Positions 2 through 8,338 of a stretch of 8,349 bases of DNA are shown here, in pieces. Origin of the DNA: Naegleria gruberi (lineage: Eukaryota). Numbering within the stretch: the stretch's first letter is position 1; the number at the start of each line of letters is the position of its first letter. The DNA is taken from NCBI GenBank assembly GCA_000004985.1, contig GG739072.1. One strand, written 5' to 3'. The translations under genes and the position numbers were made by a program. Under the pieces are notes generated by a model that did no database searches, was not told the origin of the DNA, and saw only the letters and a program-made list of their open reading frames with translations.

Positions 2-1583
2 GGTGGAGATACCGTTTACAATGTTTGTTTTTATGCTCTTGTTACAGTTGACGACTGCGGTAAAGGTCAGGTGGTCGCCATAGCAGTAACCACTGGAGGT
101 AAACAGGAAGGTGTTAAAGATGTAGTTGACATCACAGAATCAATCTTCAAGAAAGCTGACATTCCATTTACTATTCACAATATAGGTGTGGATGCTTGTG
201 ACTCATCATTAAACGAGTTTCAAGAAAGAGGGTTTTCAGTTTCAATATGCCGTTTTCATTTCATCAAGGACATCCAATCAAATTTGAAAGACAAAGTGTC
301 CGATACTAAAGTTCGATCAGAATTGTTAGGCTTGGTCTATAGAATGCTCATAAGCACACATGATGATGACTACCATGATTGTTTAGAGGCTTTGGAAAAC
401 ACAGACAAAGAAGGTGCTTTTTACAAATACTTCCATGAGCAATGGAATAAGCATCGACATTTATTAACAAATGCAGGCCGAACAAGTAGCATGTCTTTTA
501 TGAACACGACCAATTATGTGGAAAGTGCAATTAAGAGCCTACAAAAGCAAATCAAGGGAACAACTCAGAAGAAGAAATCTCTTCATGTTTGTTTATTGTT
601 GTCGATTTTGGCAATAAGAGGACAAGTGTTAAATGTTGTTCCTACCGATTTCAATGAAAGTGAAAAAGAAGCAAATCAACGGTTGGCAAAAGCCCGAGAA
701 ATGGTGAAACTCCCTATAGTTGTTGGTGATAACAATTATGTTGTACCAAGTGAATCAGATGATGATAATTATCTTGTTGTTGTTGGTGAGCAAGGTTTTT
801 TTTGCTCATGTGATGATTTTCTACACACCTGCGGCCGACCATGCAAGCACATTTATAGGGTAATACTTTCCTTACCGGTGGCTCAAAATTATTTGGGTCG
901 CAGTGCTGTGGAATTGTTGCAGGGTGTTTGCATTTTTTTTAACATCAACATTGAATTAAACAGAACCTCCACTATTCCACACTTTATTCCAAAGGATGAA
1001 CCATTACTTCTTCCTTTGGCAATCAATAACAAATTCCCGAGAAGGAAAAAGTGCGGTAGAAAACACAAACCACCAATTCCAATTACTAATCCAACAACAA
1101 AGTATGATCATGTACATGTAGATGACAATATTGAAGTCGTTCCTTTAGATGAGAACTTGCAATGTTCTGTGGATGAACTGATTCTTTCCAAAAATGAGCT
1201 TGTAGGTATTGTGAAGAACGGAGAAGAAATTCTCTTACATATTAAAATACCAAACAGAAAAAATGTAATAGATTTAGAGATATTCAAAACCAAGCACCAA
1301 GAAACTCAAATACGGATCTTCTGGGCTTTTATTGAAGAAAGTTTGAATAGATGTGATGCTTCCTATGTAAAGAAGATAAAAACCGCTGAGAATGAAACTG
1401 TAACAGGAGTGAAATTATCTAAAGACAAGACAAAGGTGAAACTCAGATTAGGAATTGAAAAATGGATATATTATTCAGTGAAATACCGACAATTCTTGAA
1501 TAATTTTATTGGATTGGATTGTTGGAAATTAACAGAGCAAAACACTACAATTACGAACGAAAGCCAAAAACAATTAGAAAATA
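2..1583 (+). CDS. MULE/MuDR-family (Mutator-like) DDE transposase with a SWIM zinc finger and a long C-terminal extension. Partial: the 5' end is upstream of the window and the 3' end is lost in the N gap.
   Basis: The reading frame (frame 2) is open from nt 2 to the gap with no stop in 527 codons, which is very unlikely by chance at this AT content. The translation ...VYNVCFYALVTVDDCGKGQVVAIAVTTGGKQEGVKDVVDITESIFKKADIPFTIHNIGVDACDSSLNEFQERGFSVSICRFHFIKDI... matches the MULE transposase core (compare MURA ...LLTAVGRDGNNQMFPIAWAVVEVENTESWTWFL...WTFISDQQKGLLNAISVVFPNAEHRMCARHI...). TTNYVESAIKSL matches the T-N-x-x-E-S-F-N catalytic Glu region. CSCDDFLHTCGRPCKHIY is a SWIM finger. The 'M' at 71 in the ORF track is a GTG codon internal to the domain, not a true start. 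The first catalytic Asp (the DATY-type motif) must lie upstream of nt 1. Confidence 0.8.
803..850 (+). other. SWIM-type zinc finger motif (C-x-C-x6-C-x3-C-x-H) within the transposase ORF.
   Basis: The codons are tgc(803) tca tgt(809) ... tgc(830) ... tgc(842) aag cac(848), giving CSCDDFLHTCGRPCKH. This spacing is typical of SWIM fingers found C-terminal to MULE/FAR1 transposase cores. Confidence 0.7.
1021..1095 (+). other. Basic, Pro-rich patch (KFPRRKKCGRKHKPPIPITNPTTKY) that resembles a nuclear localisation signal, in the transposase C-terminal extension.
   Basis: Dense R/K cluster, RRKK..RKHK, read from the translation. The function is inferred and not demonstrated. Confidence 0.35.
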
Positions 1584-4500
1584 NNNNNNNNNNNNNNNNN
1601 NNNNNNNNNNNNNNNNNNNNNNNNNNNNNNNNNNNNNNNNNNNNNNNNNNNNNNNNNNNNNNNNNNNNNNNNNNNNNNNNNNNNNNNNNNNNNNNNNNNN
1701 NNNNNNNNNNNNNNNNNNNNNNNNNNNNNNNNNNNNNNNNNNNNNNNNNNNNNNNNNNNNNNNNNNNNNNNNNNNNNNNNNNNNNNNNNNNNNNNNNNNN
1801 NNNNNNNNNNNNNNNNNNNNNNNNNNNNNNNNNNNNNNNNNNNNNNNNNNNNNNNNNNNNNNNNNNNNNNNNNNNNNNNNNNNNNNNNNNNNNNNNNNNN
1901 NNNNNNNNNNNNNNNNNNNNNNNNNNNNNNNNNNNNNNNNNNNNNNNNNNNNNNNNNNNNNNNNNNNNNNNNNNNNNNNNNNNNNNNNNNNNNNNNNNNN
2001 NNNNNNNNNNNNNNNNNNNNNNNNNNNNNNNNNNNNNNNNNNNNNNNNNNNNNNNNNNNNNNNNNNNNNNNNNNNNNNNNNNNNNNNNNNNNNNNNNNNN
2101 NNNNNNNNNNNNNNNNNNNNNNNNNNNNNNNNNNNNNNNNNNNNNNNNNNNNNNNNNNNNNNNNNNNNNNNNNNNNNNNNNNNNNNNNNNNNNNNNNNNN
2201 NNNNNNNNNNNNNNNNNNNNNNNNNNNNNNNNNNNNNNNNNNNNNNNNNNNNNNNNNNNNNNNNNNNNNNNNNNNNNNNNNNNNNNNNNNNNNNNNNNNN
2301 NNNNNNNNNNNNNNNNNNNNNNNNNNNNNNNNNNNNNNNNNNNNNNNNNNNNNNNNNNNNNNNNNNNNNNNNNNNNNNNNNNNNNNNNNNNNNNNNNNNN
2401 NNNNNNNNNNNNNNNNNNNNNNNNNNNNNNNNNNNNNNNNNNNNNNNNNNNNNNNNNNNNNNNNNNNNNNNNNNNNNNNNNNNNNNNNNNNNNNNNNNNN
2501 NNNNNNNNNNNNNNNNNNNNNNNNNNNNNNNNNNNNNNNNNNNNNNNNNNNNNNNNNNNNNNNNNNNNNNNNNNNNNNNNNNNNNNNNNNNNNNNNNNNN
2601 NNNNNNNNNNNNNNNNNNNNNNNNNNNNNNNNNNNNNNNNNNNNNNNNNNNNNNNNNNNNNNNNNNNNNNNNNNNNNNNNNNNNNNNNNNNNNNNNNNNN
2701 NNNNNNNNNNNNNNNNNNNNNNNNNNNNNNNNNNNNNNNNNNNNNNNNNNNNNNNNNNNNNNNNNNNNNNNNNNNNNNNNNNNNNNNNNNNNNNNNNNNN
2801 NNNNNNNNNNNNNNNNNNNNNNNNNNNNNNNNNNNNNNNNNNNNNNNNNNNNNNNNNNNNNNNNNNNNNNNNNNNNNNNNNNNNNNNNNNNNNNNNNNNN
2901 NNNNNNNNNNNNNNNNNNNNNNNNNNNNNNNNNNNNNNNNNNNNNNNNNNNNNNNNNNNNNNNNNNNNNNNNNNNNNNNNNNNNNNNNNNNNNNNNNNNN
3001 NNNNNNNNNNNNNNNNNNNNNNNNNNNNNNNNNNNNNNNNNNNNNNNNNNNNNNNNNNNNNNNNNNNNNNNNNNNNNNNNNNNNNNNNNNNNNNNNNNNN
3101 NNNNNNNNNNNNNNNNNNNNNNNNNNNNNNNNNNNNNNNNNNNNNNNNNNNNNNNNNNNNNNNNNNNNNNNNNNNNNNNNNNNNNNNNNNNNNNNNNNNN
3201 NNNNNNNNNNNNNNNNNNNNNNNNNNNNNNNNNNNNNNNNNNNNNNNNNNNNNNNNNNNNNNNNNNNNNNNNNNNNNNNNNNNNNNNNNNNNNNNNNNNN
3301 NNNNNNNNNNNNNNNNNNNNNNNNNNNNNNNNNNNNNNNNNNNNNNNNNNNNNNNNNNNNNNNNNNNNNNNNNNNNNNNNNNNNNNNNNNNNNNNNNNNN
3401 NNNNNNNNNNNNNNNNNNNNNNNNNNNNNNNNNNNNNNNNNNNNNNNNNNNNNNNNNNNNNNNNNNNNNNNNNNNNNNNNNNNNNNNNNNNNNNNNNNNN
3501 NNNNNNNNNNNNNNNNNNNNNNNNNNNNNNNNNNNNNNNNNNNNNNNNNNNNNNNNNNNNNNNNNNNNNNNNNNNNNNNNNNNNNNNNNNNNNNNNNNNN
3601 NNNNNNNNNNNNNNNNNNNNNNNNNNNNNNNNNNNNNNNNNNNNNNNNNNNNNNNNNNNNNNNNNNNNNNNNNNNNNNNNNNNNNNNNNNNNNNNNNNNN
3701 NNNNNNNNNNNNNNNNNNNNNNNNNNNNNNNNNNNNNNNNNNNNNNNNNNNNNNNNNNNNNNNNNNNNNNNNNNNNNNNNNNNNNNNNNNNNNNNNNNNN
3801 NNNNNNNNNNNNNNNNNNNNNNNNNNNNNNNNNNNNNNNNNNNNNNNNNNNNNNNNNNNNNNNNNNNNNNNNNNNNNNNNNNNNNNNNNNNNNNNNNNNN
3901 NNNNNNNNNNNNNNNNNNNNNNNNNNNNNNNNNNNNNNNNNNNNNNNNNNNNNNNNNNNNNNNNNNNNNNNNNNNNNNNNNNNNNNNNNNNNNNNNNNNN
4001 NNNNNNNNNNNNNNNNNNNNNNNNNNNNNNNNNNNNNNNNNNNNNNNNNNNNNNNNNNNNNNNNNNNNNNNNNNNNNNNNNNNNNNNNNNNNNNNNNNNN
4101 NNNNNNNNNNNNNNNNNNNNNNNNNNNNNNNNNNNNNNNNNNNNNNNNNNNNNNNNNNNNNNNNNNNNNNNNNNNNNNNNNNNNNNNNNNNNNNNNNNNN
4201 NNNNNNNNNNNNNNNNNNNNNNNNNNNNNNNNNNNNNNNNNNNNNNNNNNNNNNNNNNNNNNNNNNNNNNNNNNNNNNNNNNNNNNNNNNNNNNNNNNNN
4301 NNNNNNNNNNNNNNNNNNNNNNNNNNNNNNNNNNNNNNNNNNNNNNNNNNNNNNNNNNNNNNNNNNNNNNNNNNNNNNNNNNNNNNNNNNNNNNNNNNNN
4401 NNNNNNNNNNNNNNNNNNNNNNNNNNNNNNNNNNNNNNNNNNNNNNNNNNNNNNNNNNNNNNNNNNNNNNNNNNNNNNNNNNNNNNNNNNNNNNNNNNNN

Positions 4501-6781
4501 NNNNNNNNNNNNNNNNNNNNNNNNNNNNNNNNNNNNNNNNNNNNNNNNNNNNNNNNNNNNNNNNNNNNNNNNNNNNNNNNNNNNNNNNNNNNNNNNNNNN
4601 NNNNNNNNNNNNNNNNNNNNNNNNNNNNNNNNNNNNNNNNNNNNNNNNNNNNNNNNNNNNNNNNNNNNNNNNNNNNNNNNNNNNNNNNNNNNNNNNNNNN
4701 NNNNNNNNNNNNNNNNNNNNNNNNNNNNNNNNNNNNNNNNNNNNNNNNNNNNNNNNNNNNNNNNNNNNNNNNNNNNNNNNNNNNNNNNNNNNNNNNNNNN
4801 NNNNNNNNNNNNNNNNNNNNNNNNNNNNNNNNNNNNNNNNNNNNNNNNNNNNNNNNNNNNNNNNNNNNNNNNNNNNNNNNNNNNNNNNNNNNNNNNNNNN
4901 NNNNNNNNNNNNNNNNNNNNNNNNNNNNNNNNNNNNNNNNNNNNNNNNNNNNNNNNNNNNNNNNNNNNNNNNNNNNNNNNNNNNNNNNNNNNNNNNNNNN
5001 NNNNNNNNNNNNNNNNNNNNNNNNNNNNNNNNNNNNNNNNNNNNNNNNNNNNNNNNNNNNNNNNNNNNNNNNNNNNNNNNNNNNNNNNNNNNNNNNNNNN
5101 NNNNNNNNNNNNNNNNNNNNNNNNNNNNNNNNNNNNNNNNNNNNNNNNNNNNNNNNNNNNNNNNNNNNNNNNNNNNNNNNNNNNNNNNNNNNNNNNNNNN
5201 NNNNNNNNNNNNNNNNNNNNNNNNNNNNNNNNNNNNNNNNNNNNNNNNNNNNNNNNNNNNNNNNNNNNNNNNNNNNNNNNNNNNNNNNNNNNNNNNNNNN
5301 NNNNNNNNNNNNNNNNNNNNNNNNNNNNNNNNNNNNNNNNNNNNNNNNNNNNNNNNNNNNNNNNNNNNNNNNNNNNNNNNNNNNNNNNNNNNNNNNNNNN
5401 NNNNNNNNNNNNNNNNNNNNNNNNNNNNNNNNNNNNNNNNNNNNNNNNNNNNNNNNNNNNNNNNNNNNNNNNNNNNNNNNNNNNNNNNNNNNNNNNNNNN
5501 NNNNNNNNNNNNNNNNNNNNNNNNNNNNNNNNNNNNNNNNNNNNNNNNNNNNNNNNNNNNNNNNNNNNNNNNNNNNNNNNNNNNNNNNNNNNNNNNNNNN
5601 NNNNNNNNNNNNNNNNNNNNNNNNNNNNNNNNNNNNNNNNNNNNNNNNNNNNNNNNNNNNNNNNNNNNNNNNNNNNNNNNNNNNNNNNNNNNNNNNNNNN
5701 NNNNNNNNNNNNNNNNNNNNNNNNNNNNNNNNNNNNNNNNNNNNNNNNNNNNNNNNNNNNNNNNNNNNNNNNNNNNNNNNNNNNNNNNNNNNNNNNNNNN
5801 NNNNNNNNNNNNNNNNNNNNNNNNNNNNNNNNNNNNNNNNNNNNNNNNNNNNNNNNNNNNNNNNNNNNNNNNNNNNNNNNNNNNNNNNNNNNNNNNNNNN
5901 NNNNNNNNNNNNNNNNNNNNNNNNNNNNNNNNNNNNNNNNNNNNNNNNNNNNNNNNNNNNNNNNNNNNNNNNNNNNNNNNNNNNNNNNNNNNNNNNNNNN
6001 NNNNNNNNNNNNNNNNNNNNNNNNNNNNNNNNNNNNNNNNNNNNNNNNNNNNNNNNNNNNNNNNNNNNNNNNNNNNNNNNNNNNNNNNNNNNNNNNNNNN
6101 NNNNNNNNNNNNNNNNNNNNNNNNNNNNNNNNNNNNNNNNNNNNNNNNNNNNNNNNNNNNNNNNNNNNNNNNNNNNNNNNNNNNNNNNNNNNNNNNNNNN
6201 NNNNNNNNNNNNNNNNNNNNNNNNNNNNNNNNNNNNNNNNNNNNNNNNNNNNNNNNNNNNNNNNNNNNNNNNNNNNNNNNNNNNNNNNNNNNNNNNNNNN
6301 NNNNNNNNNNNNNNNNNNNNNNNNNNNNNNNNNNNNNNNNNNNNNNNNNNNNNNNNNNNNNNNNNNNNNNNNNNNNNNNNNNNNNNNNNNNNNNNNNNNN
6401 NNNNNNNNNNNNNNNNNNNNNNNNNNNNNNNNNNNNNNNNNNNNNNNNNNNNNNNNNNNNNNNNNNNNNNNNNNNNNNNNNNNNNNNNNNNNNNNNNNNN
6501 NNNNNNNNNNNNNNNNNNNNNNNNNNNNNNNNNNNNNNNNNNNNNNNNNNNNNNNNNNNNNNNNNNNNNNNNNNNNNNNNNNNNNNNNNNNNNNNNNNNN
6601 NNNNNNNNNNNNNNNNNNNNNNNNNNNNNNNNNNNNNNNNNNNNNNNNNNNNNNNNNNNNNNNNNNNNNNNNNNNNNNNNNNNNNNNNNNNNNNNNNNNN
6701 NNNNNNNNNNNNNNNNNNNNNNNNNNNNNNNNNNNNNNNNNNNNNNNNNNNNNNNNNNNNNNNNNNNNNNNNNNNNNNNNN
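1584..6781. other. Assembly or scaffold gap: 5,198 consecutive N. This is not sequence.
   Basis: Uninterrupted n from 1584 to 6781. The non-round length suggests an estimated gap size from paired reads. Both flanking ORFs run into it. Confidence 0.99.
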
Positions 6782-7318
6782 TGAATATTCCAAAGAATTC
6801 ACAACTTCTGGTGCTTGATATAAATAATCTACTGATCGACTGGAATTGAACTTTGAATTGTTAACACCTAGCTTAACAGCTCTTGAGAAATTACCAATTT
6901 TGTATCGTCCTTCATCCTTAAAGTAGAATATATTCTCTGGTCTCAAATCACAATGGACAAAATCTAAATCATGTAAACGAGAAAGACTTTCGGCAACATG
7001 TAAGCAAACCTTCAAATCATTTGTTTCGTCTATTTCTTTCACTAAATATTCTGCAAGTGAATATTCTGCTTTCGGAATAATTACATAATTTTTCAAGAAA
7101 TCAATATTTCCATTGTCTAATATTGGTACTAAATAATTATCAGTTGCATCTTGTTGGGTATTTTTGATTTTTAAATAGGTTTCGTATTCTTCCCCAATTA
7201 AAATTTTCATCAGAAATTTCTTGGAAGGATCATCCTTCAAGCAAACATTAACGAAGCGTGATTGTTTAAAATTTTCATCGAGTGCTGAATATTTGACGGG
7301 CCACGATTGCTTGTACAT
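6782..7318 (-). CDS. Eukaryotic-type protein kinase-like protein, paralogue of the gene at 7367..8338. Only the N-terminal 179 aa are present and the 3' end is lost in the gap. Atypical motifs: no glycine-rich loop, HCD catalytic loop, and NFS in place of DFG.
   Basis: The ATG is at 7318..7316 (cat on the + strand). An in-frame stop sits 2 codons upstream on the minus strand (TAA, complement of 7322..7324). Translation: MYKQSWPVKYSALDENFKQSRFVNVCLKDDPSKKFLMKILIGEEYETYLKI...LHDLDFVHCDLRPENIFYFKDEGRYKIGNFSRAVKL...YLYQAPEVV. This contains the HxDLKPEN-type catalytic loop (HCDLRPEN), the APE motif and a candidate beta3 Lys (FLMKIL). The ORF is continuous up to the first N. Confidence 0.78.
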
Positions 7319-7366
7319 TTTTTATAATATTCTAATTCGAAACCTTTCAGAATTCAAAAAACAAAA
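7319..7366. promoter_or_regulatory. 48-bp divergent intergenic region that must hold the core promoters or 5' UTRs for both head-to-head kinase genes. It is AT-rich, with a TATAAAA-like motif immediately 5' of the minus-strand ATG.
   Basis: The sequence is ttttataatattctaattcgaaacctttcagaattcaaaaaacaaaa. The reverse complement reads ...gaattagaatattataaaaATG for the minus gene. The plus gene has an A-rich leader, ...ttcaaaaaacaaaaATG. It contains the short palindromes ttcgaa and gaattc and an imperfect inverted repeat, aattcgaaa/tttcagaatt. Confidence 0.4.
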
Positions 7367-8338
7367 ATGAGTGAAGGCCAGTGGAGGTGTGTGATTAAAG
7401 CACATCCTCCCCATGATGTTCTGGAAATTTGTTCTCTACTAAACAGCTTTGTTATTGAAGTTGATAGAATATTTATTTCTAATTGCCAGATTTTTGCTTT
7501 TGCTGGCGTGTGGGAATTAACATTCCCAAGCCGAAACGAGGAAGGAAACGATAGATTTATTGAATTTAATGAATCTACATTCAACAAATTGCGAAGTTAT
7601 TGTTTAAATATTGAAAGACTATTTCTTTCGGGAACCAAAGCTATTAGTACCGAATCTCTGTATCTAAAAATTGTTCTATTATTGGAGGAGGAAGATAATC
7701 CACTGGAGAGGTACAAGTATATTTACAACAAAGTGAAGGAAGCCGAAATATCTTGTGTGCAACACTATTATGAATATTTAGAACACCAATATTTTGTAAT
7801 TATTAGCGAAAAAGCAGAGTGTGATTTAAAAACCTATTTGGAAACGAATGAGTTGAGTTTGGAAGTTAGGATAAATCTCTGTGTACAATATGCTGAGCTA
7901 GTACTAAAATTACATGAGCAGAATATTGTTCATTGCGATTTGAAACCAAGCAATGTATTGGTACTCAAGGATGGCAGTTTAAGGCTAACTGATTTTGAAG
8001 GGTCTTCTTACTTGAAAGATAACAAGAGCTTTTTCAATTCCCATTGTAAATCAATTGGTTACTTTGATGAGACAGTTAGTGTTGAGCAGTTTCAAGACCT
8101 TTTAAATCGTGATTTATTTGCTTTGGGTATTAGTTTTATTGAAATATTTATGTGTAATCCGAATAATCATATTACAACAAAGCACGAATTCATCAAGAGA
8201 AAAGAGTTTGCCAAATATCCATATTCAACAATTTATCANACAGTGGAATCTTTTCTTAAAAACGATCAGTCTCGTAGTATTAAAGATTTAATACATAAAT
8301 TACAGGAAGTTAGCATTGAGTTGAGTTACATGATTTAA
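7367..8338 (+). CDS. Protein kinase-like protein, 323 aa and complete. It has a roughly 130-aa unrecognised N-terminal region and a kinase-fold C-terminal region with HCDLKPSN, DFE in place of DFG, and subdomain IX DLFALG. It has no glycine-rich loop.
   Basis: The ATG is at 7367, with an in-frame upstream stop at 7325..7327 (taa), and the ORF ends at TAA 8336..8338. The translation contains ...LHEQNIVHCDLKPSNVLVLKDGSLRLTDFEGSSYL...DLFALGISFIEIF...RSIKDLI, which corresponds to kinase subdomains VIb, VII, IX and XI. There is one ambiguous base (n at 8239), giving one X residue. The motif order parallels the minus-strand gene: AECDLKTYL...HCDLKP versus AEYSLAEYL...HCDLRP. Confidence 0.8.
   Translation: MSEGQWRCVIKAHPPHDVLEICSLLNSFVIEVDRIFISNCQIFAFAGVWELTFPSRNEEGNDRFIEFNESTFNKLRSYCLNIERLFLSGTKAISTESLYLKIVLLLEEEDNPLERYKYIYNKVKEAEISCVQHYYEYLEHQYFVIISEKAECDLKTYLETNELSLEVRINLCVQYAELVLKLHEQNIVHCDLKPSNVLVLKDGSLRLTDFEGSSYLKDNKSFFNSHCKSIGYFDETVSVEQFQDLLNRDLFALGISFIEIFMCNPNNHITTKHEFIKRKEFAKYPYSTIYXTVESFLKNDQSRSIKDLIHKLQEVSIELSYMI

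Follow-up and report, generated by a model that had tools for sequence, protein, structure and literature searches.

The window analyzed here is an entire 8,349-bp scaffold of Naegleria gruberi, which comprises three readable pieces, the first of them followed by a long run of N that represents either an assembly gap or a mask (Table 1). The open reading frame (ORF) in the first piece encodes a SWIM zinc finger (Pfam E = 4e-5) and displays weak similarity to MULE, Mutator, and IS256-type transposases, suggesting a Mutator-like transposase. Its product, the only protein found annotated on the scaffold, is 100% identical to the NCBI entry 'predicted protein, partial [Naegleria gruberi]'. The N run hides the 3' ends of this ORF and of a kinase-like gene on the minus strand, which is arranged head to head with the plus-strand kinase-like gene that is the subject of this analysis (hereafter, the target). 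Only 48 bp separate the two start codons, and any promoter elements of both kinase-like genes must lie within the spacer or overlap the coding regions. A repeat scan of the window, with the 5.2-kb gap inside it, revealed no terminal inverted repeats linking the kinase-like genes to the transposase. Two short ORFs overlap the target gene in other frames (7354-7587 on the minus strand, 77 aa, and 8109-8291 on the plus strand, 60 aa); neither yielded any matches, and both are taken to be chance ORFs.

Table 1. Features of the N. gruberi scaffold and of the target kinase-like gene, in order of position
Feature	Position	Strand	Extent or basis
Open frame running off the scaffold 5' end and into the N gap	2-1583	+	
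N run (assembly gap or mask)	1584-6781		5198 N, 62% of the scaffold
Paralogous kinase-like gene, 5' part, ended by the N gap	6782-7318	-	~176 codons; Pfam Pkinase E = 6.9e-11
Spacer between the divergent start codons of the head-to-head kinase-like genes	7319-7366		48 bp; A/T-rich
Target ORF, divergent eukaryotic-type protein kinase-like protein	7367-8338	+	ATG to TAA, 323 codons
Residues 1-95, N-terminal region without detectable homolog	7367-7651	+	Sequence searches
K101, beta3 (VAIK) Lys in LYLKIV	7667-7669	+	Invariant Lys column in both MAFFT alignments
Residues 119-314, stretch matched by Pfam Pkinase	7721-8308	+	Profile positions 51-245 of 263
Catalytic loop H189-C-D191-L-K193-P-S-N196	7931-7954	+	H189, D191, N196 invariant; K193 near-invariant
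D209-F210-E211, DFG with Gly replaced by Glu	7991-7999	+	DFE in the DFG column of every alignment
Activation-segment end, residues 234-240 (DETVSVE)	8066-8086	+	APE equivalent in two registers
D249-L-F-A-L-G254, subdomain IX (DxWSxG), start of helix alphaF	8111-8128	+	Near-invariant D249 and G254
Codon 291 (CAN), ambiguous base 8239 in third position	8237-8239	+	Sequence read in frame
R303 of RSIKDL, probable subdomain XI Arg	8273-8275	+	Register not secure

The target had been described in the initial annotation as a complete gene for a 323-aa kinase-like protein, and closer inspection confirms this: a single frame extends from the ATG at 7367 to the TAA at 8336-8338, with an in-frame stop 14 codons upstream of the ATG and with both other plus-strand frames full of stops. 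At a GC content of ~33%, ~7.5% of random codons are stops, and simple arithmetic puts the probability of a 323-codon open run at ~1e-11. The first alternative ATG lies no earlier than codon 263. A search of the 5' part of the gene for an intron or an upstream exon that might supply a G-loop gave no plausible candidate: there are no candidate 5' splice sites, the other frames are closed by stops, and the neighboring gene starts 48 bp upstream. The GC content at third codon positions is 0.27 in residues 1-95 and 0.31 in the rest of the gene, and the neighboring genes match these values as well. The lack of an alternative start, the lack of a plausible intron, and this uniform composition jointly make it very likely that residues 1-95 are translated, if the gene is expressed. 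The undetermined n at 8239, flagged at the outset as a point to be settled, is without consequence for the frame because codon 291 specifies His or Gln whichever base stands there, so that a stop is impossible. The target was absent from all protein collections searched, and an exact-sequence look-up found it not to be on record; given that the transposase of the same scaffold is present in those collections, the target is unannotated, having been missed by the genome annotators. Overall, the ORF represents a real, intron-free, unannotated N. gruberi gene.

The assignment of the target to the kinase fold holds. The Pfam Pkinase profile (PF00069) matches with 67.1 bits against a gathering cut-off of 31.7 (E = 2.2e-18), and 400 kinase sequences from the PDB match at E <= 0.001, with StkP and TTK scoring best. 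AlphaFold2 (AF2), supplied with an alignment of 115 kinase sequences, produced a bilobal kinase model in which the C-lobe reaches pLDDT 90-93, and beta3, alphaC, and beta4-5 reach 58-79, with beta1 and beta2 being unreliable; among the significant PDB matches listed for this model by Foldseek, there are protein kinases only. No other Pfam domain was identified in the 323-aa protein, nor was a signal peptide or any other targeting signal. The possibility of a tyrosine kinase was considered and rejected, given that DLKPSN is a Ser/Thr-type loop (not HRDLAARN or HRDLRAAN) and that PF07714 scores below PF00069. Thus, the target belongs to the eukaryotic protein kinase (ePK) superfamily, within which it is very divergent and lineage-restricted.

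For the inventory of conserved motifs, we used pairwise HMMER alignments, MAFFT alignments of 20 and 115 sequences, a purpose-built hidden Markov model (HMM) of 113 kinases, and hhalign. The HCDLKPSN, DFE, and DLFALG motifs, as well as the Arg of RSIKDL, are all present as first read from the sequence. Of the two lysines proposed for beta3, the one in LYLKIV (K101) occupies the invariant column, being aligned with VVIK in P0121, YAIK in P0145, and VILK in P0123, and the match to TTK starts at residue 100; the alternative in YIYNKV can be dismissed. The catalytic loop is of the non-RD type, with Cys substituted for Arg at H-C-D 189-191, a variant shared by 42 of the 416 retrieved kinase domains, and of the Ser/Thr type (DLKPSN). 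The replacement of DFG by DFE is likewise borne out and is rare (3 of 416 domains); the metal-binding D209 is kept in a column that is near-invariant in the MAFFT alignments. Subdomain IX coincides with a helix predicted by AF2 over residues 245-262 (alphaF), and R303, offset by 2-5 residues from the column of the conserved Arg in the hhalign and MAFFT alignments, is the probable subdomain XI Arg.

One element of the initial annotation is called into question by realignment, namely, the APE position read as GYFDET, which is probably out of register. The profile alignments (113-kinase HMM and hhalign) and the 115-sequence MAFFT alignment favor S238-V239-E240, and the 113-kinase profile places S238-V239-E240-Q241 on S-P-E-Q with HMMER per-residue posteriors of 9 and *. 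The pairwise alignment with StkP and the 20-sequence MAFFT alignment choose D234-E235-T236 instead, with the column of the APE Glu falling on T236; the pLDDT in this part of the AF2 model is 55-64. A Glu is available in either register (E240, or E235 one residue off), with R303 nearby, so that GYFDET would reflect a shifted register and not a lost motif.

The classical positions of the nucleotide site that are missing or cannot be placed are the Gly-rich loop, the Gly of DFG, and the Glu of alphaC. As originally noted, there is no glycine-rich loop: GxGxxG does not occur in residues 1-101, where the only glycines, G4, G47, G60, and G89, are spaced too widely for any two to fall within six residues. 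I119 stands in the column of the alphaC Glu in four alignments and Y116 in the Pfam alignment, with a Glu (E125) only in the alignment with P0145. Judged by these alignments, the invariant catalytic positions are kept, and those of the nucleotide lid and the regulatory-spine anchor are altered.

The first 130 residues had been proposed to match nothing recognizable and to form a lineage-specific N-terminal domain, a claim that stands for residues ~1-95 and fails for residues ~96-130. The latter ~35 residues pair with beta3 and alphaC in the alignments with TTK and with several metagenomic kinases, and thus belong to an ordinary N-lobe, whereas no homolog of the former was detected. In particular, no match to the target among 1.84 billion representative proteins searched with HMMER aligns before residue 94, so that conservation of this region among homologs, which the initial annotation had suggested looking for, was not found. 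When searched alone, the region retrieved nothing from Pfam at E <= 10, and from the PDB only coronavirus nsp16 at E values of 0.2-0.8, taken here as a chance match. The N-lobe of a kinase requires beta1 and beta2, so residues 1-95 must contain or replace both strands. Attempts to place these strands with MAFFT (in two alignments) and with hhalign in global and local modes resulted in four incompatible outcomes, none of them significant: the strands fell at residues 27-57, interrupted by a 40-residue insert, at residues 78-97, with the loop deleted, at residues 3-16, or nowhere. The eventuality that proper alignment would turn the region into an ordinary N-lobe with a normal G-loop did not materialize.

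Structure prediction is unreliable in the N-terminal region. With the kinase alignment, AF2 yields pLDDT <50 over most of residues 1-92; with residues 1-100 as a single sequence, one of the five models reaches pLDDT 74 and adopts a beta-beta-alpha-beta5-alpha sandwich, and the other four score 39-56. Structural comparison of the single-sequence model recovered only de novo designed proteins and ferredoxin-like sandwiches, which is what over-idealised single-sequence models typically match, and no significant match among viral models; we treat the modeled fold as tentative. The secondary structure elements are concordant between the two AF2 runs, which makes an alpha+beta module in this region plausible. 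Residues ~1-95 may form a domain of their own, with a regulatory or targeting role, or, alternatively, a scrambled beta1/beta2 lid with an insertion. A bolder reading, in which the N-terminal ~90 residues constitute a small alpha+beta module, not seen before, that replaces the Gly-rich beta1-beta2 lid and, together with the Glu of DFE, enables a kinase family restricted to Naegleria to hold nucleotide and metal in a novel manner or gives it a novel ligand specificity, strikes us as quite improbable.

Searches for relatives consistently placed the target far from other kinases. A word-indexed search of 5.8 billion proteins returned nothing at E <= 0.001, and the exhaustive HMMER search of the 1.84 billion representatives produced 8,200 generic kinase matches, none with an E value below 1e-30. 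Scans of viral, prokaryotic-genome, and metagenome contigs recovered distant kinase cores only, with no relative found in 2.9 million viral contigs, and no ortholog was identified in any collection, including other Naegleria proteomes as far as these are represented. The best single-domain relatives, mostly unnamed metagenomic proteins, score 55-66 bits, and nothing known in the collections exceeds ~30-40% identity over partial stretches of ~100-180 residues. A complete lack of homologs combined with an unexpressed ORF had been named as an outcome that would undermine the initial interpretation; close homologs are indeed missing, and what was found are distant kinases and a single paralog. The highest-scoring single-domain relative, P0035 (66 bits), contains DFT at the DFG position, and its similarity to the target is at the generic kinase level only. 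P0035 is encoded at positions 8001-9221 of locus L011 on a 90-kb metagenomic contig (ZENG19-1_SAMN07679372_METAG-scaffold_138) with dense ORFans on both strands and almost no Pfam matches except for a uracil-DNA glycosylase; the contig has the appearance of a large, uncharacterized DNA virus.

The closest relative of the target found anywhere is its minus-strand neighbor, which is 37% identical over 95 core residues (E = 5e-13). The two genes, which diverge from their common 48-bp spacer, share HCD, an A-E-x-x-L motif after beta5, and the lack of loop glycines. The paralog contains FLMKIL and HCDLRPEN motifs, and differs from the target in having NFS rather than DFE in place of DFG, a canonical, intact APE, and only ~37 residues before the beta3 Lys, compared with 100 in the target; its 3' half lies in the gap. 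Comparison of the N-terminal regions of the two proteins showed no significant similarity (2782 of 5000 shuffles scored as well), and the extra ~60 N-terminal residues are, in this pairwise comparison, specific to the target. The paralog combines an open frame and a lack of loop glycines with an identity of only 37%, which argues that the glycine-less lid is an old, maintained family trait and not a product of fresh decay. The variable DFG motif, too, would be a family trait of some age. Under the operational definition, a pseudokinase is missing one or more of three residues: the Lys of VAIK, the Asp of HRD, and the Asp of DFG. By this three-residue rule, the paralog, in which the metal-binding Asp is absent, is likely a pseudokinase, and the target, in which K101, D191, and D209 are all present, is not, although it may have lost activity for other reasons.

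Comparison with characterized kinases helps to delineate what is unusual about the target. With Hanks-type (ePK) Ser/Thr kinases, such as bacterial StkP/PknB and human TTK/Mps1, it shares the bilobal fold, the beta3 Lys, the metal-binding Asp, the H-x-D-L-K-P-x-N loop, and the DxxxxG of subdomain IX, and its S-x-E-Q, in the register chosen by the profiles, resembles the bacterial SPEQ version of APE. It deviates from these kinases in lacking GxGxxG, in having DFE and HCD instead of DFG and HRD, in an alphaC Glu that cannot be aligned, in a deletion of ~3 residues between APE and alphaF, and in the ~95 unmatched N-terminal residues. DFE links the target to the class III/IV lanthipeptide synthetases LanKC and LanL, for instance, ThurKC, and to the corramycin kinase ComG. 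In characterized, active class III lanthipeptide synthetases, DFE is the conserved form, and in ThurKC, the Glu of DFE (E384) contacts K108 and R275 and helps to hold the activation segment (PMC10604976); ComG, which also contains DFE, is active, and its Glu was modeled as a Mg2+ ligand (PMC10996006). LanKC and LanL are also the top NCBIfam matches of the target, at 41 and 40 bits, respectively, over the kinase core only. Membership in these families was rejected because the scores are far below the cut-offs (575 and 650), there is no lyase or cyclase domain, and the target is eukaryotic; the resemblance amounts to a common substitution on a common fold.

Taken as a whole, the retained residues lead us to favor, tentatively and at slightly less than an even chance, the reading of the target as a non-RD kinase of the Ser/Thr type that is constitutively configured, has a non-canonical lid, and is, we infer, catalytically competent. 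In such an enzyme, K101 would hold the ATP phosphates, D191, K193, and N196 would make up the catalytic loop, and D209 would bind Mg2+. By analogy with the DFE-bearing bacterial kinase domains, E211 might anchor the activation segment or assist in metal binding, and the N-terminal ~95 residues would supply a non-canonical structure in place of the Gly-rich lid. Because the loop is non-RD (HCD), activity would not depend on phosphorylation of the activation loop, and the presence of DFE in active class III lanthipeptide synthetases and ComG argues that this substitution is compatible with catalysis.

A functional pseudokinase, expressed and folded, but no longer capable of phosphotransfer, is the main alternative and somewhat less likely. 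Under this scenario, the protein would act as a scaffold, as an allosteric partner, perhaps of its neighbor or of another kinase, or as a nucleotide-binding switch, and the N-terminal ~95 residues would be an interaction module. The lack of a Gly-rich loop, the Glu in place of the DFG Gly, and the Ile in the alphaC Glu column in most alignments are in line with loss of activity, as are the poor AF2 prediction of the activation segment and N-lobe and the paralog only 48 bp away, in which NFS eliminates the metal-binding Asp. The latter implies that this small family tolerates the loss of catalytic residues, as is typical of pseudokinase radiations, and lineage-specific expansions of kinases that include many pseudokinases are frequent in protists, the coccidian rhoptry kinases being an example. 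However, the conservation of K101, D191, D209, N196, and K193 would not be expected after long drift if catalysis were irrelevant, and the kinase domains with DFE in bacteria are active (PMC10604976).

The same odd motifs and the orphan N-terminus could also reflect drift in a young or decaying copy that retains an open frame, but is unexpressed or free of selection. Such an origin would account for a gene that is annotated in no source, has no ortholog in any collection, including the Naegleria proteomes covered, and resides on a repeat-rich 8.3-kb scaffold next to a 5.2-kb gap and a Mutator-like/SWIM transposase. We nevertheless consider it unlikely, given that a frame of 323 codons at 33% GC would be short-lived without selection, the catalytic residues are intact, third-position codon composition is uniform along the gene, and the paralog has diverged to 37% identity with both copies remaining open as far as they are visible. 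Still less credible, and in our estimation very improbable, is a viral origin of the scaffold, either as part of a large DNA virus or as an integrated element, with the kinase pair consisting of viral paralogs. The intron-free, tightly packed genes, the 48-bp divergent spacer, and the virus-like contig carrying P0035 fit this scenario. However, a GC content of ~33% and compact, largely intron-poor genes are the norm in N. gruberi, the record was deposited as N. gruberi, no viral hallmark gene is present in the window, the resemblance to P0035 is merely generic, and no relative was found in the viral contigs searched.

With the target, the N. gruberi kinome gains an overlooked gene and probably a small family. 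The target represents an extreme natural case of drift of the ATP lid in a kinase fold with the catalytic residues in place. If active, it would be, as far as we could find, the first eukaryotic DFE kinase without a Gly-rich loop, and would help to establish what the kinase fold minimally requires; if inactive or unexpressed, it would be an ordinary orphan paralog. It could serve to test how far a kinase can dispense with its ATP lid. The target is not a new kind of system; it is a very divergent protein of an established superfamily, its N-terminal region is an orphan, and it has no bearing on a long-standing open question. There is nothing in it to surprise a kinase specialist, given that protists commonly have divergent, lineage-specific kinase-like paralogs whose motifs are degraded and whose extensions are unique. 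The coccidian rhoptry kinases (PMC3682881) and the Giardia NEKs are examples of such divergent kinase and pseudokinase expansions. The protist expansions share with the target a fast-evolving ePK fold, degraded ATP-site motifs, lineage-specific N-terminal extensions, and clustering of paralogs; no sequence relationship to the rhoptry kinases or the Giardia NEKs was detected, and the Naegleria scaffold displays just two members, positioned head to head.
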